Positions 43,193-57,367 of a stretch of 64,000 bases of DNA are shown here, piece by piece (positions within the stretch are counted from its first letter, which is position 1; every line of letters starts with the position of its first letter). The stretch is from positions 8,312-72,311 of the forward strand of contig WGMQ01000021.1 in NCBI GenBank assembly GCA_016125005.1. Direction: 5' to 3'. Under the pieces are notes generated by a model, which worked only from the letters and a program-made list of their open reading frames with translations, was not told the origin of the DNA and searched no databases. The position numbers and the translations under genes were made by a program. The DNA is from a bacterium (GTDB lineage Bacteria > Sumerlaeota > Sumerlaeia > SLMS01).

Positions 43193-43543
43193 TCAGATCG
43201 GGTCAGGCAGGGGCCGCAGCGGGCGGATCTCGACCGTGCCCTTCTCTGCCGGGGGAAGCCGCCGCGCGATGGCGATGGCCTCGTCCAGGTTCTCCACATC
43301 GACGATGTAGTAGCCACCCAGTTGCTCGACGGTTTCCGCGAAGGGGCCGTCGGTCACCTGTTGCCGACCGTTGCGCACCCGCACGCTGGTGGCCACGGCG
43401 ACAGAGTGCAGCGGTGAGGCGGAGACCAGCTTCCCCTCGCCCGCCAGCTCATCGCAGATCGCCATGGACTTCCTCATGCAGGCAACGTGCTCATCCGGCG
43501 TCCAGGTGCTCTCGTCGCCGTAGATCAGGAGCATGTACTTCAT
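43193..43543 (-). CDS. YciI-like (DGPF domain, COG3795) protein
   Basis: MKYMLLIYGDE...TDGPFAETVEQLGGYYI; start taken at the ATG giving MKYMLLIY; it overlaps the upstream stop (TAATG). Confidence 0.7.
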   Translation of the reverse strand: MKYMLLIYGDESTWTPDEHVACMRKSMAICDELAGEGKLVSASPLHSVAVATSVRVRNGRQQVTDGPFAETVEQLGGYYIVDVENLDEAIAIARRLPPAEKGTVEIRPLRPLPDPI

Positions 43544-44409
43544 TACTTGCAACCCCCATCGGGGGCCGTTTCGCCTTCGACCATCACCATCCAGCCGAGG
43601 CCGAACTTGTCGGTGACCTGACCGTAGAGGGGCGACCAGAAGGTCTTCATCAGGGGCATGTCCACCTTGCCGCCCTCCGCCAGAGCGTTAAAGGCCAGAT
43701 TGGCCTCGGATACTCCCTTGACCGTGAGGCTGAGGCGGAATCCGGAGAAATTGCTCACATCATTACAGCCGTCCGAGGCCATGACCACGAGCTTGCCGAT
43801 GCGGAGGGAAGCATGCATGATCTTCTTCTCGAAGCCGGCCGGCAGCATCCCAGCGGGGATGGGATCGGGGCTCTGGTCAAAGCGCAGGACCATCTCGACG
43901 CGTGCCCCAAGGGCCTTCTTGTAGAACTCGATCGCCTCCTCGCAGCAGCCGCCGAAGAACAGGTACGGAGAAGTGGCAGCGTTTTGCAGGGCGATGATGT
44001 CGCGAAGACCCTCTTCCTCCTTCACGAACTTGCCGCTCGGGTCCCACTGGGCGAAGTCCTCGACCTCGTAGAACGGCCGAATCTCGATATCGGACTCCTC
44101 CTCCATCATGGGGTTGGGGCAGCGCTTCACCCATTCGATGGCCTCTTCCATCGACTTCACTTCCCAGAGCCAATAGCCCGCGACCAGTTCCTTGGTCTCG
44201 GTGAAGGGACCGTTGATCAGGGTGCGATCCTTGCCGGAGAATCGGATCCGGACGCCCTGGGAGCTGGGCTTCAGTCCGTCGCCGGACTGCATGATCCCTG
44301 CCTTGACCAACTCCTCGTTGAACTTGCCCATTTCTTCCATCAGTTCCTTGGTCGGCGGGACGCCTGCCTCGGACCCAGCGCTCGCCTTCACCATGACCAT
44401 CACTCGCAT
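43543..44409 (-). CDS. YciI-like (DGPF) domain fused to a VOC/glyoxalase (PhnB-like) domain
   Basis: N-terminal MVMVKASAGSE...INGPFTETKELVAGYWL (YciI-like); C-terminal FFGGCCEEAIEFYKKALGA...HASLRIGKLVVMASD (VOC fold). Confidence 0.65.
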   Translation of the reverse strand: MRVMVMVKASAGSEAGVPPTKELMEEMGKFNEELVKAGIMQSGDGLKPSSQGVRIRFSGKDRTLINGPFTETKELVAGYWLWEVKSMEEAIEWVKRCPNPMMEEESDIEIRPFYEVEDFAQWDPSGKFVKEEEGLRDIIALQNAATSPYLFFGGCCEEAIEFYKKALGARVEMVLRFDQSPDPIPAGMLPAGFEKKIMHASLRIGKLVVMASDGCNDVSNFSGFRLSLTVKGVSEANLAFNALAEGGKVDMPLMKTFWSPLYGQVTDKFGLGWMVMVEGETAPDGGCK

Positions 44410-44521
44410 TGTCCTTCTCCTTTTTTCAGGCCTGCGCGGCCTCGTTTTGTTGGTGCCTCGTCAAGTGATCGATTGGCGAGACCTGAAATCGACACGGTGC
44501 GAAGAAAAAAAAACTGTCGGG

Positions 44522-45778
44522 CTATTCCACGGTGGCAAGTTCCTCGATGCGGCGGCGCAGCAGACGGCGCTCGGGTTCCTGCTGGGAAAGCTCCAGCGCT
44601 CGTCCGAAAGCCTCCGCCGCCTGCACTTTCTCCCCCGCCCGGCGGAGCAACTCGCCGCGGGCCGCGTGGGCGAAATGATAGTCCACCAGCTCGCCCCGCG
44701 CGAGCAAGGCATCGATCTCGGCCAGCCCCGCCGCCGGGCCATCGCGCATGGCGAGCGCCACCGCGCGATTGAGCGCCACCACCGGCGACGGGTCGGCTTC
44801 CAGCAGGACCGTGTAGAGCGCCACGATCTGCGCCCAGTCCGTGCGGTCCGCCGTCCGGGCCTCCGCGTGGACGGCCGAGATAGCCGCCTGGATCGTATAG
44901 ACACCGAAGCTACGGCTGGCGAGTGCCCGTCGCACCAGAACAATGCCTTCGGCGATCAGCTCGCGATCCCAAAGTGCGCGGTCCTGATCCTCCAGCAACA
45001 CGATGTCGCCGTCGCCATTCGACCGCGCGACGCGGCGCGATTCGTGGAGGAGCATGAGCGCGAGCAATCCCATGACTTCGGGATCGGGATGCAGTTCGAG
45101 GAGCAGGCGACCGAGGCGAATGGCCTCGCCACTTAGATCCGCGCGGGTGTGGGACTCGCCCGATGACGCGCAATAGCCCTCGTTGAAGATCAGGTACACC
45201 ACGGCGAGGACCGCATCGAGCCGGTCCGGAAGGTCATCCAGCGACGGGATCGTGTAGGGAATTCGCGCGTCCCGAATCTTGGCCTTTCCGCGTACGATCC
45301 GCTGGGCCATGGCGCTGGGCGAGGTCAGGAATGCGCTGGCGATTTCCTCCGTGGTCAGGCCGCAGACCTCGCGCAGGGTCAGCGGAACCTGTACCTTCGG
45401 GTCGATGGCCGGGTGGCAACAGGTGAAGATCAGCCGCAACCGGTCGTCCTGAATGTCGCGCTCCGCAAGGGACAGATTGGCCGCCTCGATTTCATCGGCG
45501 CGCCGCAGCAACTCAGACTGAAGCCCATCGAGCCGGGAGCTCCGACGCATCAGGTCGATGGCCTTGAAACGCCCCGTCGACACAAGCCACGCCACGGGAT
45601 TGGCCGGAATGCCGTCGCGACGCCAGGTCTCCACCGCCGCTGCGAAGGCCTCGTGAGACGCCTCCTCGGCCAAGTCGAAGTCTCCGAGGATACGCACCAG
45701 GGTGGCGAACACCTTGCCGGAGTCCTCACGGTAGATCCGCGCCAGTTCTCGCTCGGTGGTGTCGTTGTGAGCATTCAC
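44522..45778 (-). CDS. ECF sigma factor with long C-terminal TPR-like extension (COG4941 type)
   Basis: Start set at GTG 45778 (AAGGAG upstream) giving [45 protein letters not shown]; sigma regions 2 and 4, then about 200 aa of helical repeats. This family is known to neighbour YciI-like genes. Confidence 0.75.
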
Positions 45779-46133
45779 TTGCCTTGATTGGCTCCTTCGG
45801 GGATCGCCCGGGATTTGCCGCTGGAGAACGACTCCGGGCAAGTGATGTTTGGGGCTGGAGAGTGCAGGCTCGGGCACCGCGCTTGCATGGAGAAAAGTCA
45901 GCGGAGGGGGGTTGATTCTAGTTGCATGTTTCGATCAACTTCGACGAGGCTTGGACTGCTAACGGGCTTTAGTGAGGCAATTCTCCCAAAGACCCGTTTG
46001 CTCTTGAGCCAACGCACCCGATGTGGGTTGCTCGTGAGGTTGCCAAGGGGGGGACCCGGTCGCGAATATCCTCCGCTCCCAACCGAAGCAGGCCCGAGCA
46101 CCCAAGGGACAGAGAGAGTAAAATAACCCGCCA

Positions 46134-47930
46134 ATGATGGGCTTCAACCCGCAAAACCCGATGATTGTCCAGGGAGATATGTCAATCTTCCTGGAGACCA
46201 ACAACCCTCTGTACACAGAGGTGCGCGACGTACTGGCGCGCTTTGCGGAACTGGAGAAAAGCCCCGACTATGTACACACCTACCGCATCACGCCGCTGAG
46301 CCTGTGGAACGCTGCATCGAGCGGGATGAAGGTGGACGAAATCTGCGATGCACTCCTGAAGTACTCGAAGTACCCGGTGCCCGAGGGCGTCATGGTGCGC
46401 GTCAGGGACCAGGCGAGCCGCTATGGCCAGTTGAAGCTGGTCAAGAAGGACGGGATGCTGGTGCTGGTCGGCCCCGACAAGCCCACGATGGTGCAGATTC
46501 AGCGGTTCAAGCAGGTCAAACCGCTGCTCAAGCGCCAGATTGACGCGACGAGCTTCGAGATCGATGAGGAGAACCGCGGCCTTCTGAAGCAGGCCCTGAT
46601 CAAGGTTGAGTTCCCCGTCGAGGATTTGGCGGGCTATGTTGATGGCGCACCGCTTGCGGTGGAACTGCGCGAGCAGCGTTTGGCGGGGAAGCCCTTCTCG
46701 CTGCGCAGCTACCAGCAGGATGCCGCCGAGATCTTCTACGCATCCGGTGGGGTGACCGGCGGCAGCGGCGTGCTCGTGCTCCCCTGCGGCGCGGGAAAGA
46801 CCGTCATCGGCATCGCCTCCATGTCGAAGGTGAAGCAGAAGACCCTCATCCTGACGACCAACATCACGGCGCTGCGCCAGTGGCGCACCGAGATTCTGGA
46901 CAAGACAACGCTCACCCCGGAGGAGGTCGGCGAGTACTCGGGCGAAGTGAAGGAAATCCGCCCGGTCACCGTTACCACCTACCAGCTGCTGACCTTCCGC
47001 AAGAAGAAGGGGGACGATTTCCTCCACATGGAAATCTTCAATGCGGAGAACTGGGGCCTGATCATCTACGACGAGGTTCACATGCTGCCGGCGCCCATTT
47101 TCCGCTCGGTCGCCAATATCCAGGCGCGCCGCCGCCTCGGACTGACGGCCACGCTGGTGCGCGAGGACGAGATGGAGGAGGACGTGTTCTCCCTCATCGG
47201 CCCGAAGAAGTTCGACGTGCCGTGGAAGAGTCTGGAATCGCAGGGCTGGATCGCGCGGGCCGAGTGCATCGAAGTCCGCGTTCCACTCCCACAGGCCATG
47301 CGCATGGAGTTCGCCACCTCCGACCAGCGGATCCAGTTCCGCCTGGCCTCGGAGAATCCGCTCAAGCTGACGATCATCCACCGCCTGATCAAGAAGCACA
47401 GCGACGACAATATCCTGATCATCGGCCAGTATCTGGACCAACTGGACCTGCTGAGCCGCGAGTTCAACGCCCCCATCATCACGGGCAAGACACCGAACAA
47501 GGAACGCGAGGAGATCTATGCCGCGTTCAAGAAGAAGACTCACAAGATCCTGATCGTCTCGAAGGTGGCAAACTTCGCCATCGACCTGCCGGACGCCAAT
47601 GTGGCGATCCAGGTTTCGGGCACGTTCGGATCACGCCAGGAAGAAGCCCAGCGCCTCGGTCGGGTGCTGCGCCCGAAGGGCGATGGCATCGAGAATATCG
47701 CCCACTTCTACTCCCTCACGACCAAGGACACCAGCGAGCAGGAGTTCGCCAACAAGCGGCAGCGCTTCCTGGCGGAGCAGGGGTACAGCTACAAGATCGA
47801 GTTCGAGGAACTGACCGACGCCGATGAGAAGACGGCAGGTCAACTGTGGGAGGACATGAAGTCGCGTCTGCTTGCCCCCACGAACGAGGACGATGAACCT
47901 GCGGCTGTGCAACCGGCCGCCACCAAGTAA
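46134..47930 (+). CDS. XPB/ERCC3-type SF2 DNA repair helicase (bacterial XPB)
   Basis: N-terminal damage-recognition-like domain, Walker A LPCGAGKT, DEVH box (IIYDEVHMLP), RED motif (TATLVREDE) and helicase C-terminal domain motifs. Confidence 0.85.
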   Translation: MMGFNPQNPMIVQGDMSIFLETNNPLYTEVRDVLARFAELEKSPDYVHTYRITPLSLWNAASSGMKVDEICDALLKYSKYPVPEGVMVRVRDQASRYGQLKLVKKDGMLVLVGPDKPTMVQIQRFKQVKPLLKRQIDATSFEIDEENRGLLKQALIKVEFPVEDLAGYVDGAPLAVELREQRLAGKPFSLRSYQQDAAEIFYASGGVTGGSGVLVLPCGAGKTVIGIASMSKVKQKTLILTTNITALRQWRTEILDKTTLTPEEVGEYSGEVKEIRPVTVTTYQLLTFRKKKGDDFLHMEIFNAENWGLIIYDEVHMLPAPIFRSVANIQARRRLGLTATLVREDEMEEDVFSLIGPKKFDVPWKSLESQGWIARAECIEVRVPLPQAMRMEFATSDQRIQFRLASENPLKLTIIHRLIKKHSDDNILIIGQYLDQLDLLSREFNAPIITGKTPNKEREEIYAAFKKKTHKILIVSKVANFAIDLPDANVAIQVSGTFGSRQEEAQRLGRVLRPKGDGIENIAHFYSLTTKDTSEQEFANKRQRFLAEQGYSYKIEFEELTDADEKTAGQLWEDMKSRLLAPTNEDDEPAAVQPAATK

Positions 47931-47985
47931 CGGCTAACAGCCACGCCAGGCATGACCACGGAGACCCGCCCACAGAGGGCACTTT

Positions 47986-50754
47986 ATGAAACTTAAGAGC
48001 ATCCTGAAGACACTTTCCGTTTCGCATCTCCAGGCGATACAGGACTACTGGACCATCTCTCCGGTCGATCTGTCCGAGGCCTCGAACGACGAGGAGAAGC
48101 AGGGGCTACTCATCGCCAACCTTTATCAGCGTCTCCAGAATCGTTCCCTCTGGGAGAAGGCCTTCGGCCAGCTCTCGCCCGAGCAGGTGAATCTGGTCAA
48201 CTTTCTGGCGATCCACGGCGGCGATCTTGAGAAAAGCGAAGTTGCAACCCGCTTTGCGGAGGGGAACGTCGAGCTGTTGGATGCGATGGTCACGGACCTC
48301 GCCAACAAGGGCATCGTGTTCTATGACTCGGTCCCCGACATTTCCGAGGAGCTGACGCTGGTCGGCATCCCCGAGCCCTTCCTGCGGTACATCGACCTCC
48401 CCAGCTTCTGGGAGGGCTACCTCGGCAACTTCCTGAAGGAACACTCGAACAACGAGCTGAAGCACATGGCCACGCAGGGCCTGCGCCTTCAGCCCGAGAG
48501 CGCCTGCAAGAACTACCTGATCTGGCTCATCCGCAAGCACCTGCTCGACCCGAAGTTCCTGCGTCGCTATGTGGAGCGGATGCCCCCCGGGCCCCTGTCG
48601 GTCTTCCAGCTCATGCAGGAGAAGAAGGGGGTCTGCGTCTATCGCGACCTGCTGGAACTGAACGTGCAGCGTCGCTACGATCATTCGCGCGGCGATGCGA
48701 TCCAGTGGCTGCTGAACACGAGCGGTCTCGTCATCACCGCGGTCGCGGGCGGCAACAAGTACAACAACCTGCTGATGATTCCGCGCGACCTGGTCTATAT
48801 CATTTCGCAAAACTATCTGCCCGACGAACGCACCTTCCTGCAGCTCGACTCGATCTCGGTCGTCACGCGCGAGAACACCCCGTCCGTCATTATCGACAAC
48901 AGCAACACGATCCTCCGCGATCTCGTGTCCTTCTGCAATTTCGTGGACCGCTACCCGGTCAAGGTGTTGGCCACGGGCGGTATTGGGAAGAACGACCTAA
49001 AGAAGGTCCTCCCGGTCCTGAGCCGCTTCAAGTCGCTCAAGTACGCGGAGTTCCTGTCGCTCTTCGCGATCCAGAAGAAGTTTCTGGTTTCGACCGGTGA
49101 TTCCTACCGCGTCTCCGCTGCCTTCCTTTCGTGGCTGGAAAACGCCCAGCAGGCCTATGCGGACCTGATTTCCTGGTGGCTCAAGACCCCCGAGTGGAAC
49201 GAGGAGTTCATCGAGGGGAACACGATCCACGTCGAGCCTCCGCCGCAAGGCCTTACCTCGATTGTGCAGTTCCGCCGCACGGTCCTCGAAGCACTGAACG
49301 AGATGCCGCGCGACCGCTGGGTCGTCTACCAGGGCTTCCTTGAGGAAGGGCTCCCGATGGTGGAGCAGGAGATCCCCGGCCGCAGCGAGCCGCTCAGCTA
49401 CGACAAGCACACCCGCAGCAACGAGGTCGTGGTCGAGTCCATCGTGGCGGAGTGCCTGAACTGGCTGGGTATCCTGACGCTGGGCCTCCAAAGCGAGAAG
49501 GACGCCGAGGGAATCGGCATGCGCCAAGGGGATGGCAAGACCATGAAGGCACGCGGCGGCAGCCGCGGGCGCCCCCGCAAGCAGCATGAGATCGAGTTCG
49601 CCTTCCGTTTCACCGACCTGGGCCGCTTCGTGTTCAACGTCCATCCGGAACACTGGGTGGAGGTCTTCCGCAGCTCCGACGAAAACGTCGTGATGCCGCT
49701 GGCCTACGACGTGAACCATTTCATCGTCCAGCCGACGCACGAGATCATCGTTCCGCCGGACCTGAACCTGCGCACCTTCTATCACCTGAACGAAATCGCC
49801 GCCGTGCGGTCGATCGACGTGATGTCGGTCATGACGATCACGCGCGAGAGCCTGCGCGAGGGCCTCGACCGTGGCCTGCGCGGGGAGGAAATCCTCGAGT
49901 TCCTCAAGAAGAACTCCCGGACGCCGCTCCCCGAGTCCCTGATCCAGCTCATCAAGGACTGCTCGGACAAGCACGGCGAAGTGAACATGGGCTACGCGGG
50001 CGGCTATATCGTGATCGACGATCGCGCCCTTCTGGAGCAGGTCCGCATCAACAAGCGGATCGGCCCCTCCATCAAGGATGTGATCGACAACCGAATCGTC
50101 CTGCTGAACGCCGATGTGGACGTGAAGCGGCTGGCACGCGAACTCCAGAAGCTCGGGTTCATGCCACGACTTGGCAGCGAACATGTGCACCTGAAGGACG
50201 ATGACATGTACCACCTCTCGCTGACGCGCGAGGACATGTACACGCTCATCGCCGCAGTGCGCTATGGCCTCGGGTGCCGCGACCAGCGCGGGCACTTCGT
50301 GGCGGAGGAACGCCTCAACCCGCTGCTCGAACGCCTCAAGCCGGATCCGCGCACGTTCATCTCGCTCAACGAACTGGCGGAACCGCTCGTTCGTACCTGG
50401 ACCAAGAGTGCCGAGGCGGCCATCGAGGCCCAGCTTGAGGAGGTGAAGGAGCAGTACCAGAGCCAGCTCACCCGCATCGTCTCGCACGCGGTGCCGCGAG
50501 GGATCTCGAAGCATAACTTCGACGGCCCCAACCCGGCTACCGAACCGGACGACGTGGAGAAGCTGCTGGACTTCGCCGTCGAGAACGAGTTCGAGGTCGA
50601 GATCAAGTACGTGAAAAGCAACCGCGAGGAGGTCACGGAAGTCGTGGCCCCCGAAAGCGTCGAACGCGACCGCCTGTTGGGCCGCTGCCGCTCGCGCGAA
50701 AACAGCTTCGCCGTCTACAAGATCGACCGCATCGTGGAGGCACGGCTGGTGTAG
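47986..50754 (+). CDS. large (922 aa) XPB-associated protein with C-terminal WYL-like domain
   Basis: 56 nt downstream of the XPB gene. No enzymatic motif recognised in the first 850 aa; the last 70 aa (EVEIKYVKSNREEVTEVVAPESVERDRLLGRCRSRENSFAVYKIDRIVEARL) match the WYL pattern (…IxY…R.V.P…L.G.C…R.F+xDRI). Confidence 0.55.
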   Translation: MKLKSILKTLSVSHLQAIQDYWTISPVDLSEASNDEEKQGLLIANLYQRLQNRSLWEKAFGQLSPEQVNLVNFLAIHGGDLEKSEVATRFAEGNVELLDAMVTDLANKGIVFYDSVPDISEELTLVGIPEPFLRYIDLPSFWEGYLGNFLKEHSNNELKHMATQGLRLQPESACKNYLIWLIRKHLLDPKFLRRYVERMPPGPLSVFQLMQEKKGVCVYRDLLELNVQRRYDHSRGDAIQWLLNTSGLVITAVAGGNKYNNLLMIPRDLVYIISQNYLPDERTFLQLDSISVVTRENTPSVIIDNSNTILRDLVSFCNFVDRYPVKVLATGGIGKNDLKKVLPVLSRFKSLKYAEFLSLFAIQKKFLVSTGDSYRVSAAFLSWLENAQQAYADLISWWLKTPEWNEEFIEGNTIHVEPPPQGLTSIVQFRRTVLEALNEMPRDRWVVYQGFLEEGLPMVEQEIPGRSEPLSYDKHTRSNEVVVESIVAECLNWLGILTLGLQSEKDAEGIGMRQGDGKTMKARGGSRGRPRKQHEIEFAFRFTDLGRFVFNVHPEHWVEVFRSSDENVVMPLAYDVNHFIVQPTHEIIVPPDLNLRTFYHLNEIAAVRSIDVMSVMTITRESLREGLDRGLRGEEILEFLKKNSRTPLPESLIQLIKDCSDKHGEVNMGYAGGYIVIDDRALLEQVRINKRIGPSIKDVIDNRIVLLNADVDVKRLARELQKLGFMPRLGSEHVHLKDDDMYHLSLTREDMYTLIAAVRYGLGCRDQRGHFVAEERLNPLLERLKPDPRTFISLNELAEPLVRTWTKSAEAAIEAQLEEVKEQYQSQLTRIVSHAVPRGISKHNFDGPNPATEPDDVEKLLDFAVENEFEVEIKYVKSNREEVTEVVAPESVERDRLLGRCRSRENSFAVYKIDRIVEARLV

Positions 50755-51046
50755 GGGCGAAAGCCCTCGGCACAGCTCTGGCTGCTCTTTGTGCATTCTC
50801 CTTCTCAAGGATGAAATGGGACACCCAGTTGGACGGCGCGAGGCCGGTGTAAGTTGCGCGAACGTAGGCGCAGGGATACTGAAATCCTTGCCAGGTCCAG
50901 CCAGTACGTTCCATCCTTGATTTGGGAGTCGGGCACAGGCCCGGTGTGTGGTGGCGGGGGACCTTTCCCGTTGACCAGATTGCACTCGGCATGATGCCCT
51001 CCCGGCCTGTCTGCCAAGGGCCAGCAAACCTGCATGGAGTGACCCC

Positions 51047-52852
51047 GTGAGAACACGCGTTGCGATGGTAACAACCTTCAATCCAGGAGCCGCAGGCCCC
51101 CGGTATGTGGCAGGGCACCTGAATGAGCACGGACATGACGTGAAGTTCTTCCACGTCAAGGAGTTGCGCGCCGTCGCAATCCCCACGACCGACTTCGAGA
51201 AGCACGAGGCCCTCAACCGCTTCTCGAATGACGTTCAGTTCATCGCCATCCAGCACCCGGGCGAGGTCCTCTACGTCCCCTATCCCACGGCGATCACCGA
51301 CAAGGAAATCCAGCTTTTCGTCGACGAGCTGAAGGCCTACGATCCGCATATCGTCGGCATCTCGATGTTCAGCGTGACGGTGAACATCGCCCGTCGCCTG
51401 ACCAAGCTGATCCACGAGCAGATCCCCGGCCTCCCGGTCATCTGGGGCGGCATCCACTGCATGGTCCACCCCGAAACCTGCCTTGAGGGCCTGCGCCCGA
51501 ACCCGATTAGCGGCGAGACCAACCCGCTCCAGGTTCCCGACATCGTGTGCGTCACCGAGGGCGAGTACCCGATGACGGAACTGATGAACCGCTGGGACGA
51601 GTTTACCGCGGGGAACGTCCCCGACGTGGCCGGTCTCTGGTTCGTGAAGGGTGGTGAGGTCACCAAGTTCAACAAGAAGCCCTTTGAGCCGAACCTGGAC
51701 AACTACGCTCTGCCTGTCTACGCCCAGAAGGAAGTCCTCATCGACGACGACAAGGTCGATAACAAGTTCGAGGACCCCAAGGGCTTCATCCAGCACCACA
51801 TCTACGTCTTCACCGAGCGCGGCTGCCCGTATTCCTGCTCCTTCTGCATTCACTCGACCATCAACAAGATGGACGAGGGCTACTCCCGCATTCGTCGCCG
51901 CTCGGTCGCCCACGTCATGGGCGAGATCGAGAAGCGCATCGAGGAAAACGACCTCAAGCACTTCATCCTCCACGACGAAATCTTCGCGATCCAGAAGAAG
52001 TGGATCATGGAGTTCGCCGACGAATGGGAGAAGCGCTTCACGAAGCACGGCATCACCTTCACCGGCTATGTGCACCCGATCGCCACCGACGAGGAAATGG
52101 TCGATCGTCTGTTCGAGGTTGGTATGTCGCGTACTGGCATCGCGATCCAGACCGGCAGCGTCCGTACCTCGAAGCTGATGTATGATCGTCCGCTTCACCG
52201 CGAGAAGATCATCCGCATGTCGGAGTACGTTGCGAAGCACAAGTTCGACCTAGTTCAGGTCGAAGTCATTACCGACTCGGCCTACGAGTTGGATGAGGAT
52301 CGTCGCGATACGCTGAATCTGCTCCTCGACATGAAGCCGACCTTCTATGTGGAGACCTTCGGCCTCCAGACCTACTCGACCTCCGAGCTGGCCAACAAGA
52401 AGCGTCTGATGGAAGAAGTGCCGTGGAACGAGCGCCTGTTCTGGAACATGCTCTTCCACCTGACCGGCAACACCTACGTCACTCGTGACACGATCGTCGG
52501 CCTGAGCAACGACCCGCACCTGCGCGAGAACCCGCTGCTTCTCGAGCAGCTCGTGATCGACCTCAAGGCCCAGTACTACCGCTCCCTCAAGGGCCAGCTC
52601 CGTTACGACGACGAGAAGAACCTCGTCACCGCGGACAAGGCCGCCAAGGAGCAGTACGACCCGCGCAAGGAGGCGATCCTTGAGATGCGCCGCCGCTCGC
52701 AGGCCTACAACGGCGCCGAGGGAAGCCTCGAGGAAGAGAACGCACGCCGTGGCGTCACGAACCCCGTCGGCCAGATCGGCGAGGGCGAGTTTTCCGGCTA
52801 CCGCTTCAAGCGTCTCTTCAAGGAGAGCATCAAGAAGCTCCTCAACCGCTGA
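51047..52852 (+). CDS. B12-binding domain radical SAM protein (class B radical SAM)
   Basis: N-terminal cobalamin-binding Rossmann-like region, then the CxxxCxxC radical SAM motif (ERGCPYSCSFC); 601 aa. Confidence 0.8.
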   Translation: MRTRVAMVTTFNPGAAGPRYVAGHLNEHGHDVKFFHVKELRAVAIPTTDFEKHEALNRFSNDVQFIAIQHPGEVLYVPYPTAITDKEIQLFVDELKAYDPHIVGISMFSVTVNIARRLTKLIHEQIPGLPVIWGGIHCMVHPETCLEGLRPNPISGETNPLQVPDIVCVTEGEYPMTELMNRWDEFTAGNVPDVAGLWFVKGGEVTKFNKKPFEPNLDNYALPVYAQKEVLIDDDKVDNKFEDPKGFIQHHIYVFTERGCPYSCSFCIHSTINKMDEGYSRIRRRSVAHVMGEIEKRIEENDLKHFILHDEIFAIQKKWIMEFADEWEKRFTKHGITFTGYVHPIATDEEMVDRLFEVGMSRTGIAIQTGSVRTSKLMYDRPLHREKIIRMSEYVAKHKFDLVQVEVITDSAYELDEDRRDTLNLLLDMKPTFYVETFGLQTYSTSELANKKRLMEEVPWNERLFWNMLFHLTGNTYVTRDTIVGLSNDPHLRENPLLLEQLVIDLKAQYYRSLKGQLRYDDEKNLVTADKAAKEQYDPRKEAILEMRRRSQAYNGAEGSLEEENARRGVTNPVGQIGEGEFSGYRFKRLFKESIKKLLNR

Positions 52853-52882
52853 CAAGCGACTCAGTCCCCCAGATAAACCAAT

Positions 52883-52913
52883 CCCCCGCCAGCGATGGCG
52901 GGGGATTTTTTCG
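52883..52913 (+). terminator. rho-independent terminator after the radical SAM gene (possibly bidirectional)
   Basis: CCCCCGCC-agcgat-GGCGGGGG stem followed by ATTTTTTCG; a GTCTATAC motif copy follows immediately. Confidence 0.75.
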
Positions 52914-52931
52914 TCTATACAGGCAACAGCT

Positions 52932-53714
52932 TCAGCGCGTTCCACGCCACCGAAGCGTCAGCAGGTTGCCGATCCCGGTGATGAGCGCAAACATGGCGAG
53001 GCCCAGCAGCGTTGAGGAAATCACCGCCGCGAAGAGGTAGGACGTCTTGAGCGTCGCATTCGCGAAATAGATCAGATAGCCGAGGCCGAACTTGTTGCCG
53101 CCGAAACCGGCAAAGAACTCGCCGACGATGACGCCGATGACTGAAAGCCCGCTGGAGATTCGCGCCCCGGCGACGATGTAGGGAACGGCACCCGGGAGTT
53201 GCAGCTTCAGCAGCCGTTGGAGTCTGGTCGCGTTGTTCACCTCGAACAGTTCCACCATGTTCGGGTCCAGTGTTGTCAGACCCGTTGTCGTGTTGGTGAT
53301 GATTGGAAAAAGGCTCACGATGAAGGATATAATGACGATGCTTTGGAAGCCGTGGCCGAACCAGAGGATGATGAGCGGCGCGATGGCGACGATGGGTACC
53401 GTCTGGAGAAAAATCGCGTAGGGATAGCCGGCCCGCTGGATCAGCCGCGATTGGGAGAAGACGAAGGCGATCAGGATTCCGACGACAAGGCTGGCCAGAA
53501 GGCCCAGCAGGGCAGCCTTGCCGGTGAGGAGTGCACCGCTCCAGAGAGCGGCCCGGTTTTCCTTGGCAACGTTGAGCACCGCAACCGGCGTCGGCACCAG
53601 ATAGGGTGGCAGCTCCCAGTAAACCACGGCGCCATTCCATGCAATGACGACGAGTGCGAACAGCACGAGCGGTGGAAGAAAGAGGGCCAGGGCGCGATGC
53701 AGGAGCGGATTCAT
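52932..53714 (-). CDS. ABC transporter permease, nitrate/sulfonate/taurine (NitT/TauT) family
   Basis: 260 aa, six TM helices, EAA-like loop; SsuC/TauC-like. Confidence 0.8.
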   Translation of the reverse strand: MNPLLHRALALFLPPLVLFALVVIAWNGAVVYWELPPYLVPTPVAVLNVAKENRAALWSGALLTGKAALLGLLASLVVGILIAFVFSQSRLIQRAGYPYAIFLQTVPIVAIAPLIILWFGHGFQSIVIISFIVSLFPIITNTTTGLTTLDPNMVELFEVNNATRLQRLLKLQLPGAVPYIVAGARISSGLSVIGVIVGEFFAGFGGNKFGLGYLIYFANATLKTSYLFAAVISSTLLGLAMFALITGIGNLLTLRWRGTR

Positions 53715-54499
53715 CGGAAGGACTCCCGCAAGGTCCGGCTAACATCGCCGGTGAGTCGTGCAAAGTCCGGCTCCGCCCGCAGCTCGGCGTTGCGGGGGAA
53801 GCTGAAAGGGACCGGTACCTCGGCGAGGACGCGCCCGGGGCGGGCACTCATGACGACGACCCGTTGGCTGAGGAAGACCGCCTCCGAGACGTTGTGAGTG
53901 ACGAAGATGGCCGTGAAGCGATCCCGGCCCCATAGTGCGAGCAGTTCCTCGTTGAGTCGCTGGCGTGTGATGTCGTCGAGGGCGGCAAAGGGCTCGTCGA
54001 GGATGAGCAGACTCGGCCGGGTCACGAGCGCCCGGGCGAGCGACACCCTCATCTGCATTCCGCCGGATAGCTGGGCGGGATAAAACCGCGCGAAATCACG
54101 AAGTCCCACTAGGTCGATGACCTCGGCGACACGACGGCGGCCTTCGTCGCCGACCCGCCCGCGCAGTTCCAGAGGCAACCGGACGTTCTTTTCCACGGAT
54201 CGCCAAGGGAGCAGGGTGGGCTGCTGGAAGACGAAGCTAATGTCGCGACGGGTTTGCCGACCGGCGAGCTTGGTGTCTCCGCCGATGTGGACAGAACCGC
54301 TTGTTGGCCGCAGGAGCCCCGCAACGAGCCGGAGCATGGTGCTTTTGCCGCAGCCGGATGGTCCGACTACCGAGAGAAACTCCCCATCGCCCACGCGCAG
54401 ATTGAGGTCGTGCAGAGCCTCTACGCCCCGGTCGAAACGGAGGGAGACCTGCTCGAGCGTCACGGAAGTCTGGCGGGCGGAATCGGGGGGAAATGACAT
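53711..54499 (-). CDS. ABC transporter ATP-binding protein (SsuB/TauB-like)
   Basis: Walker A GPSGCGKST, signature LSGGMQMR, Walker B LILDEPF; overlaps the permease start. Confidence 0.85.
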   Translation of the reverse strand: MSFPPDSARQTSVTLEQVSLRFDRGVEALHDLNLRVGDGEFLSVVGPSGCGKSTMLRLVAGLLRPTSGSVHIGGDTKLAGRQTRRDISFVFQQPTLLPWRSVEKNVRLPLELRGRVGDEGRRRVAEVIDLVGLRDFARFYPAQLSGGMQMRVSLARALVTRPSLLILDEPFAALDDITRQRLNEELLALWGRDRFTAIFVTHNVSEAVFLSQRVVVMSARPGRVLAEVPVPFSFPRNAELRAEPDFARLTGDVSRTLRESFR

Positions 54500-54600: not shown

Positions 54601-55359
54601 TTACTCGGAGGTCTTGGCGTCGGCGTCGAGCCCCGGAGTGTCCGCATTGACGCTGAGGTCAACGCTCAGGTTGTTGAGCTCAGCACGGCGGGTCAGTTCG
54701 CGAACAACCTGGAGCAGGTGGAGAAGCGCGGCCTCGTCGGCGCTGAGGTCCTCGCCAGCGACTAGTCGATCCATGATGTCGGCGATGTCGCTGAGCCCCT
54801 GGCCATAGGTGTCGACGTCCTCGCGGATTTCCTCCTCGGAGATCGACTCCTCGATGACCTTGTAGAGGGCGTCCTCGAACTCCTTGGTGCCTTCCTCGGT
54901 CTTCAGCTTGGCGGCGAATTCCTTGATATTGGTGCCGTACTTGGCAATCGTGTCGTCCACGCCCTTGTAGATCTCGTCCTCGTACTTCTGGAGGAGCTTG
55001 GCGGATTCGGTCTTGATGGATTCCTGGAGGGCCTTGCGACCGGCGGGAAGCTGCTCGTCGAGGGCCTTGGTGATCACGTCGTCGAGGATCTTGGGAGCCT
55101 CGCCCTTGATGTAGGCCTGGGCGCTTTCGTTCACGCCTTCAACCTGCTCCTTGATCTTGGAGCCAATGACGGAGGCGACGCCTTCAGGCTCGAGGGCGTC
55201 ACGGGTCAGACCGGACATGAAGCCGAAGTAACCGAGGAGCAACACGATGAAGACGATGCCAACAACAATGGTGACAACCTGAGAGCGACGGGCCTTGTCG
55301 GTCTGAGCGTCGATCTTGGCGGCGAGTGCCGCGATTTTCTGGGAAGTGGTATCAGCCAT
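54601..55359 (-). CDS. single-pass membrane protein with long acidic coiled-coil ectodomain (paralogue 2)
   Basis: N-terminal short basic region, one TM (VVTIVVGIVFIVLLLGYFGF), then Glu/Lys/Asp-rich helical sequence; start overlaps the upstream stop (TAATG). Confidence 0.5.
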   Translation of the reverse strand: MADTTSQKIAALAAKIDAQTDKARRSQVVTIVVGIVFIVLLLGYFGFMSGLTRDALEPEGVASVIGSKIKEQVEGVNESAQAYIKGEAPKILDDVITKALDEQLPAGRKALQESIKTESAKLLQKYEDEIYKGVDDTIAKYGTNIKEFAAKLKTEEGTKEFEDALYKVIEESISEEEIREDVDTYGQGLSDIADIMDRLVAGEDLSADEAALLHLLQVVRELTRRAELNNLSVDLSVNADTPGLDADAKTSE

Positions 55360-56153
55360 TACTGGTTAGCCCCCTTCTTGGGATCTTCGGAGACATGACG
55401 GAGGAACTCGCGGGACTCGGGGTTGAGGAAGTGACGCAGAGCAGTGGTGGCGTAGACACCAAGCGAGTTGGTCAGCTCTTCACGCAGGGCGAGGTCGTCC
55501 ATCTCCTCGATTTCCTTGGGAATCTCGAGCACGCCGAGGTTGTTTCCGATCCGGTTGACGGAGTCGATGTGGACCTTGAAGTGCGTGTTGAGGGAGCGCT
55601 CAACAGCCGAGTTCATGGCTGCGGCGGCGTTGGCCATGATCTTCTCGGCCTCCTCCTGGTCGCGCAGCTCGGGGGCCTCGTCCTTGAGCTTCTCGATGAT
55701 GGAGTTTTCGATGCGCACGCGGCGGGTCTCAAACTCGTTCGCGCCGAACTCGTGCATCTCGCTAAGGAACGCCTCAACCTCGTTGTAGCTCTTGGCGAGA
55801 ATTTCCTGCTCGCGCTCCTGATACTTCTTCATCGCCACGGACTGAAGCATGGGAATGGCTTCCTTGAGGAGAGCCTTGCCTTCTTCCTCCACGGCCGGGA
55901 CGACTGTGGCCTGAATTTCCTTCACCATCGCGTCCTGAAAGGTTGCCCGGTTCTGATAAGCGGTGTACACGGGGGACAGGATCATATACACGCCGACGAC
56001 GGCGGCCGCGGCCACCAAGATGCCAACTGCGCGGGTGACGTTTTTGGCGGTGGCGTTTGCTGCCATCGCGGCGTCGAGTTTGGCGTTGAGTTCGTCTATC
56101 CGTCGGGAAACGTCCTGCTGGTCACCCGACGAAACAGGTCCGTCTGCTGCCAT
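55359..56153 (-). CDS. single-pass membrane protein with long coiled-coil ectodomain (paralogue 1)
   Basis: Start moved to MAADGPVSSGDQQ (GGAGG Shine-Dalgarno 7 nt upstream); TM (AVGILVAAAAVVGVYMIL), then a helical Glu/Lys-rich domain; same architecture as the downstream gene. Confidence 0.5.
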   Translation of the reverse strand: MAADGPVSSGDQQDVSRRIDELNAKLDAAMAANATAKNVTRAVGILVAAAAVVGVYMILSPVYTAYQNRATFQDAMVKEIQATVVPAVEEEGKALLKEAIPMLQSVAMKKYQEREQEILAKSYNEVEAFLSEMHEFGANEFETRRVRIENSIIEKLKDEAPELRDQEEAEKIMANAAAAMNSAVERSLNTHFKVHIDSVNRIGNNLGVLEIPKEIEEMDDLALREELTNSLGVYATTALRHFLNPESREFLRHVSEDPKKGANQ

Positions 56154-56404
56154 GGAGAGACCTCCAGAGAGTGAAATTCCAACTAGTAAAACAGGCTTTG
56201 TACAGCTTGAGCAATGGCGTCGGGGCCACAAGGACAATCTGGCACAAGAGTTTGCCTCGGCAGTGCAAGTTGCAATGGTTGGGACATTGGTCGGTCCACA
56301 TTCACTGGGTGATTTCCGGGCGCCGGAATCCGCCTTGCCTTTGTTCTGCACTAACGGCCCAGTAGCGGGAGTCCAGCCTATCCTGCCGGAGAATTGCCAC
56401 AACG

Positions 56405-57367
56405 GTGCTTGAACCTCGCATTCTTGGCCTCGACCACAAGCCCGGTTGGGATCGCCTCTGGGGTCGCGCCGGTGAACCGCTGGGGCTTTCCTGGGCTTTC
56501 CCGGACCTGGTTGCGGGCTCCCTTGGTGCGGTTCGACGCATCGGCCTCTTCACAAGCGGTGGCGAGATGGTCGCCGGAACTCAGTTTGTGCTGCGCCGCC
56601 ACCGATGGATGACGCTTTGGGCACACGCCGCTCCAGCTCCCTGGGGAGGAATCCTTTGCGATCCCGAGTCCGCCCGTCAGGAGACTTTCCTCCGTGAAGT
56701 GGCGGCGGGGTTGGGCAAGGTCCTTTCGAGGGAGTCGTTGTGGGCACAGCTGATCCTCTCGCCCGAAGTGCGTGACGCGCGTCCGTTCCTCTGGGCGGAT
56801 CCTCACTGGTCGGCACGGGTCCATTACAACTACCTAAATCGGATCGATTCACCGACATCGCTTGAGGAAGGTGCCGAGGGATCGGTTCGCCGTCAGGCGC
56901 GCAAGGCTCGCGAGGCCGGGGTTGAGTTCCGCGAAGGCGCCGATCTGCTGCCTGCCTTTGCACGCCTCTTTGCGGGAACACGCCAGCGGCAGGGCTTCGC
57001 GCGCATTCTGGGGGACGAGGCATTGCGCCAGCTGGCGGATCCAACAACGGGCGGTTGGTTGGTCGGAGTGATGCGTGGAGAAGACATGCTGGCAGGCGCA
57101 GTCATCCGGACAGACCGCGAGCGCGCCTACTATCTTGTCGGCGCGAGTGAGTCCGCGCAGGACGACGGTTCGGGTGCGCCAACGCTGCTGCACATCGAGG
57201 CCACGCGGCGTCTGTTCGAGCGGCGCGGTGCGTTCGTTTGGGACTGGGTCGGGGCCAACACGCCCTCAGTGGCGCAGTTCAAGAAAAAGTTCCGGCCTGA
57301 GCTGGAAATGAGCCTTCGCGTGACGTGGCGAAGAGGCTTGGGCAACCTGATCAGGGTTGGTCGCTGA
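56405..57367 (+). CDS. GNAT-fold acetyltransferase (FemAB-like / Acetyltransf_6-like), putative
   Basis: 320 aa; the C-terminal half (…GEDMLAGAVIRTDRERAYYLVGASE…LLHIEATRRLFERRGAFVWDW…) resembles the FemAB-type GNAT core. GTG start uncertain. Confidence 0.4.
   Translation: MLEPRILGLDHKPGWDRLWGRAGEPLGLSWAFPDLVAGSLGAVRRIGLFTSGGEMVAGTQFVLRRHRWMTLWAHAAPAPWGGILCDPESARQETFLREVAAGLGKVLSRESLWAQLILSPEVRDARPFLWADPHWSARVHYNYLNRIDSPTSLEEGAEGSVRRQARKAREAGVEFREGADLLPAFARLFAGTRQRQGFARILGDEALRQLADPTTGGWLVGVMRGEDMLAGAVIRTDRERAYYLVGASESAQDDGSGAPTLLHIEATRRLFERRGAFVWDWVGANTPSVAQFKKKFRPELEMSLRVTWRRGLGNLIRVGR

Follow-up and report, generated by a model that had tools for sequence, protein, structure and literature searches.

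A conserved XPB gene pair in Sumerlaeota: a bacterial helicase and a putative p52-like partner ending in a WYL domain

We analyzed a window of 64,000 nucleotides (the whole stretch of contig WGMQ01000021.1 examined here), in which an XPB helicase gene and the gene of a 922-aa protein form a conserved two-gene cassette and a real functional pair. We favor, with a probability of roughly 60%, the interpretation that this cassette is an operon encoding a helicase and its p52-like regulatory and docking subunit. A description of such a pair was not found in the literature searched. The features discussed below are listed in Table 1.

Table 1. Features of the XPB–partner locus and its downstream neighborhood (window positions)
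Feature	Position	Strand	Size or residues	Basis and remarks
XPB (ERCC3/Rad25-type) SF2 helicase/translocase gene	46134..47930	+	598 aa	NCBIfam NF045503, Pfam, motifs
XPB N-terminal domain	46161..46541	+	aa 10–136	PF13625, E=5.8e-34
XPB–partner intergenic spacer	47931..47985	+	55 nt	GAGGG Shine-Dalgarno-like motif 5' of partner ATG, read from sequence
Partner gene	47986..50754	+	922 aa	Starts 55 nt past the XPB stop codon
Partner, about four winged-helix (wHTH) domains	47986..49695	+	aa 1–570	AF2 models
Partner clutch domain	49711..50070	+	aa 576–695	Homologue of XPB N-domain and p52/Tfb2 clutch
Partner clutch–WYL linker	50071..50535	+	aa 696–850	Small alpha/beta segment, then long helix aa 794–832 (AF2)
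Partner C-terminal WYL domain	50536..50754	+	aa 851–922 and stop codon	Family-level Pfam, Foldseek
Class-B (B12-binding) radical SAM gene	51047..52852	+		Pfam B12-binding and Radical_SAM; adjacent, outside the module
Hairpin terminator	52880..52907	.		12-pair stem, 8 G-C pairs, T run on + strand; detected on both strands

Conserved linkage of XPB and its partner

The helicase scored 850.8 bits against the NCBIfam equivalog "DNA repair helicase XPB" (cutoff 610), matched Helicase_C_3, ResIII, and ERCC3_RAD25_C in Pfam, and carried GAGKT at position 219, DEVH at 313, TAT at 338, RED at 343, and QRLGRVLR at 506. This agrees with an earlier sequence-only reading of the locus, which had reported the XPB motif set including RED and DEVH, and whose three open reading frames were all recovered where it had placed them. 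The N-terminal domain that it described is also present, but the label "DRD-like" is imprecise, because PF13625 is the XPB/Ssl2 N-domain that binds p52; in TFIIH, the XPB N-domain pairs with the p52 clutch (Greber 2019, PMC6422496).

Upstream sequence of 2 kb or more was available for 44 Sumerlaeota loci; in 41 of these, XPB was located upstream of the partner on the same strand, and in 40 it was directly adjacent, the XPB alignment ending 8–583 nt ahead of the partner start. The remaining three loci had no upstream XPB. Identities of XPB and partner co-varied (r=0.95 over 40 pairs), and the pair was found across essentially the whole Sumerlaeota phylum. The same order was retained in three of ten distant lineages sampled (L058, L066, L068), in which the called genes were 81 nt apart, 14 nt apart, or overlapping by 4 nt, so that the pairing proposed from this single locus is borne out in other genomes. 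Its placement in PVC genomes is not, as the relatives belong to Candidatus Sumerlaeota, among the NCBI candidate phyla. The other seven distant members stood alone, with XPB not found within 5–6 kb; together with the three XPB-less loci, they suggest that the partner may function where no XPB lies beside it, or may rely on an XPB gene at another site. Synteny of other window genes was not detected, apart from generic ABC ATPase matches in five loci.

The partner gene follows XPB closely, as previously noted, although the spacer measures 55 nt rather than 56. Terminator-like sites on the plus strand were absent from the scanned region ahead of position 52880, and, judging from the sequence, the two genes are probably co-transcribed. 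Conservation of the N-terminus (MKLKS...) across the family supports the start codon assigned to the partner.

Domain architecture of the partner

From its N-terminus, the partner comprises approximately four winged-helix domains, a PF13625 domain, and an alpha/beta segment; a long helix then leads to the C-terminal WYL domain. AF2 pLDDT was 82.6 over the full length, 87.2 for aa 1–570, where H-H-H-E-E units are repeated, and lower (36–80) in the linker; many distant family members stop near profile position 730. Foldseek searches with aa 1–570 alone returned weak matches only, all to tandem winged-helix proteins, namely RPC3 (best, E=6.9e-3), TFIIIC, p52 (E=0.048), the MarR family, and SelB, and the p52 match was no better than those to other winged-helix repeat proteins in the PDB. 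A motif scan revealed no Walker A, DExx, or GIY motifs, and neither Pfam, NCBIfam, nor PADLOC assigned the protein to an enzyme family, consistent with the earlier statement that it has no recognizable catalytic motif. The nuclease or Bax1-like fold that had been suspected in it was not recovered: Foldseek detected no nuclease fold with the full model or aa 1–570, and Pfam, motif, and fold searches gave no Bax1 match.

While rightly describing a non-catalytic protein with a WYL tail, the earlier reading overlooked a strong Pfam domain, PF13625 at aa 579–693 (E=4e-21), and with it the fold shared by the XPB N-domain and the p52 clutch. We consider this fold the most informative feature of the partner because it predicts the way in which XPB and partner dock. 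Sequence comparison identifies the domain as a paralogue of the N-terminal domain of XPB from the same locus (BLASTP, E=2e-11, 27% identity over 96 aa) and as a homologue of the TFIIH p52/Tfb2 clutch (hhalign, partner 576–657 versus p52 304–392 in the p52/Tfb2 family, 86.5% probability, E=4.6e-6). In p52, the clutch corresponds to residues 306–399 and pairs with the XPB N-domain (Greber 2019, PMC6422496). Vertebrate p52 proteins carry PF13625 matches too, and positions 312–356 of the Pfam Tfb2 profile were matched in 25 of 44 partner homologues (best E=4.1e-9). Chains of p52/Tfb2 were the top Foldseek PDB matches of the full partner model (E=1.6e-7, ~600 columns aligned), with TM-scores of 0.14–0.30 and rmsd of about 24 Å, indicating that only the domain order is alike and not the rigid shape. 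Given that sequence similarity to p52 is limited to about 80 residues, with nothing beyond the clutch aligning, and that Pfam detected no Tfb2_C (p8-binding) domain in the partner or its homologues, the partner is not a p52 orthologue.

The C-terminus, as anticipated in the earlier reading, is a WYL domain, with support at the family level. In this partner, the Pfam WYL match fell below the cutoff (14.1 versus 21.8 bits, E=0.05) and the W-Y-L triad is degenerate. Pfam WYL was matched in 32 of 44 homologues (best E=1.9e-5) and exceeded its cutoff in the distant members P0277 (69.7 bits) and P0187 (24.6 bits). Foldseek matched the partner model to BrxR (7qfz), CapW (7tb5 and 9c5g), and PafBC (9fnd), and the family profile matched a chain of the Pif1 entry 8bnv (residues 424–505, E=0.0045). 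The sequence pattern is typical (VEIKY...VAPE...C..R.....Y.IDRI), and R915 and P889 are invariant across the family. The WYL domains of CapW, PafBC, DriD, and Pif1 bind ssDNA, reporting DNA damage or helping a helicase hold its substrate (PMC11662680, PMC11804915, PMC12041258, PMC9964779), and by analogy the partner tail probably senses ssDNA. Its ligand could be something else; c-di-GMP is a known WYL ligand (PMC11880434).

Proposed mechanism and comparison with known systems

By analogy to p52 in TFIIH, the partner clutch (aa ~576–695) and the XPB N-domain would form a pseudo-symmetric dimer, which would tether the partner to the XPB motor and tune its ATPase; p52/p8 is the master regulator of XPB ATPase (PMC7708078). 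The WYL domain would bind ssDNA, arising from damage or as the strand that XPB displaces, and this binding may direct or gate the motor at ssDNA/dsDNA junctions, with the winged-helix array holding duplex DNA or perhaps recruiting other factors. On such analogies, the cellular role of the pair is likely DNA repair or DNA opening and not phage defence.

The locus resembles the XPB–p52(Tfb2) arrangement of TFIIH in that the XPB PF13625 domain is matched by a homologous domain in a non-catalytic partner, where helical and winged-helix domains arrayed at the N-terminus precede it, and in that p52/Tfb2 provides both the best fold matches of the full model and a profile-level alignment of the clutch. 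In contrast to p52, the partner is twice as large (922 versus 462 aa), has an N-terminal region without profile-level homology to Tfb2 (hhalign, Foldseek), has no detected Tfb2_C/p8-binding domain, and ends in WYL, which Pfam reports in none of the p52 proteins listed. Unlike in TFIIH, the bacterial genes form an operon, and counterparts of other TFIIH subunits were not seen among the neighboring genes examined. As in archaeal XPB–Bax1 (PMC13024598), XPB lies beside the gene of a dedicated partner, an arrangement suggesting that two proteins work as one machine on DNA bubbles or forks. However, Bax1, a nuclease, binds XPB at the thumb motif and the second helicase domain, whereas the partner, in which neither a nuclease motif, a nuclease fold, nor a Bax1 match was detected, would dock via the XPB N-domain, apparently missing in Archaeoglobus fulgidus XPB (PMC3353954).

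The C-terminal WYL fold is shared with PafBC, DriD, CapW/BrxR, and WYL-tailed Pif1, but the partner is not a wHTH-WYL-WCX dimeric regulator, is an accessory subunit with its own WYL, whereas in Pif1 the helicase itself bears the domain, and differs from these ssDNA sensors in its degenerate triad. The actinobacterial XPB of Mycobacterium tuberculosis belongs to the same helicase family and has the same N-domain; published work handled it alone, in which state it is a weak enzyme, and stated that bacteria had no known p52 homologue or partner (PMC3353954). Actinomycetota (Nocardia, Nonomuraea) encode clutch-bearing proteins too. In Nonomuraea, the clutch-bearing ORF and XPB are not direct neighbors, as XPB starts ~3.8 kb further downstream; in Nocardia, XPB was not found within 5 kb. 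Rv0862c, next to ercc3 (Rv0861c), may be the mycobacterial member of the partner family.

Alternative roles of the pair and the downstream radical SAM gene

The combination of winged helices with WYL, together with the Foldseek matches to BrxR, CapW, and PafBC, would also suit a giant relative of the wHTH-WYL regulators PafBC, CapW, BrxR, and DriD that acts mainly as a DNA-damage-responsive transcription factor for XPB or other genes, and in which the clutch would sense or sequester XPB rather than activate it. Known WYL regulators switch transcription on sensing ssDNA, a sigma-70 family gene lies 0.7–0.8 kb downstream of two distant stand-alone members (L061, L063), the window has an ECF-like sigma gene oriented divergently to XPB, and seven of the ten distant members sampled are not beside XPB. 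We nevertheless regard this role as unlikely. The architecture departs from wHTH-WYL-WCX, with WYL as the final domain, ~850 aa into the protein, and WCX not seen; the clutch is the best-supported domain, and the sole role assigned to it in the TFIIH literature examined is XPB N-domain pairing. Moreover, a tight operon with co-variation of r=0.95 is more readily reconciled with a stoichiometric complex than with a regulator acting on a target, and the window sigma gene is syntenic in none of the related loci. A far less probable role is that of an anti-phage defence or signaling module, also raised in the sequence-only reading, in which WYL would sense an infection cue and XPB would be the effector motor. 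WYL domains were reportedly first noted in defence contexts by Makarova et al. in 2014 (cited in PMC9964779), and the helicase core gives generic PADLOC PbeA matches (81 bits). However, PADLOC gave no match for the partner or the relevant flanks, and the flanking genes encode a beta-lactamase-like protein, a GT4 glycosyltransferase, a sigma factor, and an ABC transporter, in line with the earlier remark that no defence-island context is visible. Relatives were found neither in viral contigs nor on true plasmids, XPB exceeds the repair-helicase equivalog cutoff by 240 bits, and essentially phylum-wide presence with tight identity co-variation fits a vertically kept core pair and not a patchy mobile island.

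The least credible proposal, an extension made in the sequence-only reading, joins all three genes into one module, where the B12-dependent radical SAM enzyme encoded downstream would modify a nucleic acid or cofactor that XPB and its partner handle. The class-B assignment made earlier is sound, given the B12-binding and Radical_SAM domains and a CPYSCSFC motif at aa 260, with no NCBIfam equivalog matched. The gene lies on the same strand after a gap of 292 nt (not 290, as first given), with no plus-strand terminator-like site until one 3' of it, and its family is conserved in Sumerlaeota. However, radical SAM homologues were absent from all 57 related XPB–partner loci, even at E=1e-3, of which 36 had at least 2.2 kb and 32 at least 5 kb of downstream sequence, and none of the ten distant family members sampled had a radical SAM gene as its neighbor. 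Its orthologues occupy unrelated neighborhoods: one with 90% identity is flanked by rodA on one side and by a LOG-family gene plus OTCase on the other, with mreC also beside it, and one with 68% identity has an FKBP gene and a SPASM radical SAM gene as neighbors. In MAG CAZOKZ01, the 68% orthologue is encoded on a contig other than that of the XPB pair. This negative synteny test refutes the module, and the radical SAM gene is an unrelated chance neighbor of the pair. The terminator reported after this gene is real, and it is situated between the radical SAM gene and a convergent minus-strand ORF ending at 52915.

The XPB–partner operon

ORF listing and translation gave three same-strand genes, encoding XPB, its large partner and a radical SAM protein (rSAM), with gaps of 55 nt between XPB and partner and 292 nt between partner and rSAM. 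XPB scored 850.8 bits on the NCBIfam equivalog NF045503, whose cutoff is 610 (protein aa 9–556, profile positions 1–548), and its SF2 motifs were intact, including the XPB-specific RED motif. A hairpin terminator lies beyond rSAM; no further + strand terminator-like site was found 5' of it in the scanned region, the promoter scan of the locus found no sigma-70-like promoters, and no Rfam match came near significance across 45700–53100, so there was no sign of a riboswitch or other RNA in the gap before rSAM. The three ORFs, the identity of XPB, the class B assignment of rSAM and the terminator, all proposed by the sequence-only reading, were borne out by the ORF listing, NF045503, Pfam, motifs and the hairpin; its placement of the genome among PVC bacteria was mistaken, Candidatus Sumerlaeota being a candidate phylum outside PVC. 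The nearest relatives of all three proteins were from Candidatus Sumerlaeota.

A pattern scan with one genome per species yielded 57 loci, labelled essentially all as Sumerlaeota, with four records labelled as unclassified bacteria or metagenome. XPB was upstream on the same strand in 41 of the 44 loci that include the partner start together with 2 kb or more 5' of it (directly adjacent in 40, 3.1 kb away in one), and the identities of XPB and partner to the window proteins co-varied (r = 0.95, 40 pairs). XPB and the partner form a conserved operon, and the linkage of XPB with a large protein suspected from the sequence held in this neighbourhood check. The other window genes, among them those for the sigma factor, the glycosyltransferase and rSAM, showed no synteny at these loci, five of which had generic ABC ATPase matches. 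Three loci (L030, L048 and L052) had a partner with 7.6–10 kb upstream and no XPB there, even at E = 1e-3.

Features of the window and of related loci (L numbers, genomic loci around relatives; P number, protein from the partner-profile search)
Feature	Source	Position	Strand	Description
XPB	window	46134–47930	+	598 aa
XPB N-domain	XPB	aa 10–136		PF13625
SF2 motifs	XPB	aa 219, 313, 338, 343, 506		GAGKT (Walker A), DEVH, TAT, RED, QRLGRVLR (motif VI)
Partner	window	47986–50754	+	922 aa
Winged-helix-like array	partner model	aa 1–560		about four helix-helix-helix-strand-strand units
Alpha/beta domain	partner model	aa ~576–695
Helicase_C_3	partner	aa 579–693		PF13625, E = 4e-21
Small alpha/beta segment	partner model	between aa ~695 and 794
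Long helix	partner model	aa 794–832
Beta-barrel	partner model	aa 854–921
rSAM	window	51047–52852	+	601 aa
Terminator hairpin	window	52880–52907		3' of rSAM; 12-pair stem and T run
ECF-like sigma gene	window	44522–45877	-	Sigma70_r2, Sigma70_r4_2, DUF6596; divergent from XPB
ABC-type ATPase	window	53711–54499	-	3' of terminator
ORFs without Pfam family	window	38074–40098 (-), 43414–44772 (+), 52915–53847 (-), 54601–57367		674, 452, 310, 252, 347, 320 aa
XPB upstream of partner relative	L058			gap 81 nt
XPB upstream of partner relative	L066			gap 14 nt
XPB upstream of partner relative	L068			4-nt overlap
Clutch	P0181	aa 832–1003		protein of 1,106 aa
Sigma-70 family gene (r2, r3, r4)	L061	8217–9284		0.7–0.8 kb downstream of stand-alone partner relative
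Sigma-70 family genes (r2, r3, r4)	L063	8105–9178, 9247–10320		0.7–0.8 kb downstream of stand-alone partner relative
Helicase_C_3 gene	L063	5001–7265	+
Second Helicase_C_3 gene	L063	11160–12265	-	754-aa gene, inverted, cut by locus end
Setting of 90% rSAM orthologue	L069	2488–8815		also in L070
68% rSAM orthologue and SPASM-domain radical SAM gene	L071	7831–10836		SPASM gene ~130 nt downstream of the orthologue

Architecture of the partner and its likeness to p52

The partner carries a strong PF13625 domain, a family to which the XPB N-domain also belongs. The sequence-only reading had overlooked it, but the description given there of the protein as non-catalytic and WYL-tailed stood. Sub-threshold Pfam matches were to Tfb2 (profile positions 325–356 of 358) and WYL. 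Across 44 homologues (36–76% identity, every one 911–941 aa), PF13625 was found in all 44, WYL in 32 (best E = 1.9e-5) and Tfb2 in 25 (best E = 4.1e-9); the Tfb2 matches inspected covered profile positions 312–356 only, and one family member scored above cutoff.

Full-length AlphaFold2 modeling (mean pLDDT 82.6) predicted winged-helix-like units leading to an alpha/beta domain and, at the end, a beta-barrel. In Foldseek searches of the PDB, this model ranked TFIIH p52/Tfb2 chains at the top (8ebs_D, E = 1.6e-7; 7zs9_2; 6nmi_D; and 6trs, the p52/p8 crystal) over about 600 aligned columns, followed by XPB chains (~1e-4) and then by the WYL proteins BrxR, CapW and PafBC (~1e-2). Given the low TM-scores of these matches, the resemblance is one of domain content and order, while the overall shape differs. 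Modeled separately (pLDDT 87.2), aa 1–570 had no PDB match at E = 1e-3, and every weak match was to a protein with tandem winged helices (RPC3/C82, TFIIIC subunits, MarR-type regulators, SelB, ScpB and p52). The p52 matches, at E = 0.048 and, for the N-half crystal 6tru, E = 0.43, did not outscore other winged-helix repeat proteins.

The hidden or Bax1-like nuclease that had been suggested for the partner did not appear: in this respect the PDB searches with the full and aa 1–570 models returned winged-helix repeat proteins only, with neither Bax1 nor a nuclease fold among the Foldseek matches of either model, and the Bax1 family was absent from the Pfam and NCBIfam matches. The motif screen returned a PD..E.K-like string at aa 854, in the WYL region, and bare two-histidine strings, with no catalytic signature. 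The partner differs from Bax1, the archaeal XPB-binding nuclease, in showing no nuclease domain or fold.

When the partner family was aligned by hhalign with human p52, yeast Tfb2 (both queries verified by full-length identity to PDB chain sequences) and nine aligned vertebrate homologues, partner residues 576–657 matched p52 residues 304–392 (86.5% probability, E = 4.6e-6, 81 columns). This region is the p52 clutch, which spans residues 306–399, has the XPB N-domain fold and forms a pseudo-symmetric dimer with the XPB N-domain (Greber et al., 2019; PMC6422496). PF13625 also scored on vertebrate p52 proteins, and the partner clutch aligned with the window XPB N-domain at E = 2e-11 in BLASTP (27% identity over 96 aa); by sequence, it is a direct paralogue of the N-domain of the adjacent XPB. 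Outside the clutch, the Tfb2 N-terminal region (NTD and MD1, PF03849 positions 1–300) had no profile-level alignment in the partner. Additionally, the p8/Tfb5-binding Tfb2_C (PF18307), precomputed in vertebrate p52 proteins, was not detected by Pfam in the partner or its 44 homologues. Full orthology to p52 was rejected on these two grounds: the clutch is common to both proteins, whereas the N-terminal Tfb2 region and Tfb2_C of p52 were not detected in the partner. Judged by these alignments, the partner has the defining XPB-docking domain of p52 and a similar overall layout, and is not a p52 orthologue.

The WYL domain (PF13280) scored 14.1 bits in the window partner alone, below the cutoff of 21.8. 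Two other proteins of the family cleared this cutoff, P0277 with 69.7 bits and P0187 with 24.6, and the partner tail aligned with the WYL region of P0277 at E = 0.001 (BLASTP); the predicted tail fits the WYL profile and fold at family level. R915 was invariant in the family, other basic tail positions were kept in at least 80% of homologues, and the partner profile matched a chain of the Pif1 entry 8bnv (E = 0.0045).

Distant relatives, proposed mechanism and possible ancestry

Searching the partner profile against 1.84 billion cluster representatives gave 3,425 matches at E ≤ 1e-3, the weaker of which may comprise XPB N-domains, and 1,219 at E ≤ 1e-10, where about 1,200 clusters (50% identity) is a lower bound. 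Many matching proteins of 700–860 aa covered only profile positions ~1–730, indicating that the tail is missing in them. Others matched over the clutch-to-WYL half only and had different N-termini, as seen when P0142, P0145, P0148, P0154, P0246 and P0249 were compared with P0199, P0200, P0216 and P0230. The family therefore looks modular, occurring as the clutch-to-WYL half alone or as a winged-helix array and clutch ending near position 730 without WYL. Ten distant families were sampled, the named sources for some of them including Chthonomonadaceae, Chloroherpetonaceae, Chloroflexota and KSB1; XPB was directly upstream in three, and seven were stand-alone. Clutch-bearing ORFs were also found in the Actinomycetota Nonomuraea, where XPB starts ~3.8 kb downstream, and Nocardia, with no XPB within 5 kb.

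Based on operon linkage and the TFIIH literature, we propose that the partner clutch would pair with the N-domain of XPB in the way that the p52 clutch does in TFIIH; such docking is what an operon-encoded p52-type clutch predicts. Docking may then tune the XPB ATPase, by stimulating or limiting it, as does p52/p8, which is both activator and speed limiter of XPB (PMC7708078). Isolated M. tuberculosis XPB is an inefficient enzyme (PMC3353954), and partner-dependent tuning could explain this weak in-vitro activity. The WYL tail would bind ssDNA, as shown for the WYL domains of CapW, PafBC and DriD and reported for the WYL-tailed Pif1 of T. elfii (PMC11662680; PMC11804915; PMC12041258; PMC9964779), and the winged-helix array might contact duplex DNA or other proteins. 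A role of the pair in DNA repair or DNA opening is likely.

In the NCBI annotation, the partner family is labelled only as "helicase-associated domain-containing protein", and we found no paper on a bacterial clutch-bearing XPB partner in the searchable literature, which mostly excludes subscription-only journals. The 2012 M. tuberculosis study states that bacteria have neither a known p52 homologue nor a known partner (PMC3353954), and Bax1 is the sole prokaryotic partner mentioned in a 2026 XPB/XPD review (PMC13024598). The pairing of XPB with a clutch-bearing partner in bacteria, together with a putative WYL sensor, appears to be new, and is of a kind already known from TFIIH. The partner is a candidate for the missing partner of bacterial XPB, until now studied only as an isolated, feeble enzyme, and would tie a TFIIH-type motor to ssDNA sensing by WYL domains, a theme of bacterial damage responses.

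In archaea, the partner of XPB is Bax1 (PMC13024598), and A. fulgidus XPB is apparently without an N-domain (PMC3353954). Given that N-domain/clutch pairing would be common to bacteria and eukaryotes while archaea use Bax1, the eukaryotic module could share bacterial ancestry. The most far-reaching reading is tentative and less likely than not, with a probability of roughly 0.3: a widespread bacterial two-subunit counterpart of XPB-p52, in which a scaffold docks the N-domain, often with a WYL ssDNA gate, and which is ancestral to the eukaryotic module or shares ancestry with it. If true, the XPB-p52 module would not be a eukaryotic invention; in any case, the origin of this TFIIH module becomes a testable question.

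Alternative readings and neighboring genes

The partner could instead be a PafBC-like transcription factor, as its wHTH and WYL content would suit, and sigma-factor genes lie near two distant members, which might point to a connection with transcription. The window also has an ECF-like sigma gene; it is non-syntenic in other Sumerlaeota, so proximity to sigma genes may be coincidence. The architecture fits poorly: in the wHTH-WYL-WCX regulators PafBC, CapW, BrxR and DriD, an N-terminal wHTH directly precedes WYL and is followed by a WCX dimerization domain, for a length of ~300 aa, whereas the partner has 922 aa, ~850 of them before WYL, and ends with WYL without a WCX. Nor would such a factor account for the clutch. 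In one of the two loci with sigma genes (L063), a pair of convergent sigma-70 genes, each of 357 aa, sits between the two Helicase_C_3 copies; this inverted arrangement may reflect either a true inverted duplication or an assembly artefact that produced a palindrome.

A defence module has no evidence in its favor. The earlier observation that no defence-island context is visible held in PADLOC, the flanks and IMG/VR: the partner had no match in PADLOC-DB, XPB had generic helicase matches to PbeA only, and PADLOC runs on the three proteins and ten flanking ORFs gave nothing relevant. Viral contigs in IMG/VR had no partner relatives, and carriage on plasmids was dismissed, the two "plasmid" matches being megabase-scale, non-mobilizable actinobacterial records. 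The ABC-type ATPase beyond the terminator matched PADLOC mad3 (E = 1e-28) and mad8, most likely through generic ABC ATPase similarity, and its neighbors had no defence matches. Several sizeable ORFs near the locus had no Pfam family at E ≤ 1e-3; as long ORFs of the two strands often overlap in this high-GC window, some may not be genes.

The three-gene module of XPB, partner and rSAM put forward in the sequence-only reading was refuted by synteny, the criterion which that reading had itself set. No rSAM homologue occurred at any of the 57 XPB–partner loci, even at E = 1e-3, with at least 2.2 kb downstream available in 36 and at least 5 kb in 32, and rSAM orthologues in Sumerlaeota (37–90% identity) had other neighborhoods. 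In the MAG CAZOKZ01, the 68% orthologue was on contig 54 and the XPB pair on contig 58. The adjacency of rSAM to the pair is peculiar to the window genome, and removing the link keeps a false functional association from being propagated.

From its N-terminal B12-binding domain (PF02310, E = 2.4e-10) and radical SAM core (PF04055, E = 3.1e-12; CPYSCSFC, a CxxxCxxC motif, at aa 260), rSAM is a predicted class B, cobalamin-dependent enzyme. NCBIfam gave no equivalog-level assignment; BchE came closest, with 63 bits where the cutoff is 481. The 90% orthologue directly follows mreC, an unannotated ORF and rodA (FTSW_RODA_SPOVE), and has a LOG-family (Lysine_decarbox) gene and OTCase on its other side. 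This setting differs from that in the window and may be more informative about the uncharacterized family. The 68% orthologue is beside an FKBP gene and the SPASM radical SAM gene, the latter suggesting a possible peptide- or cofactor-maturation context.
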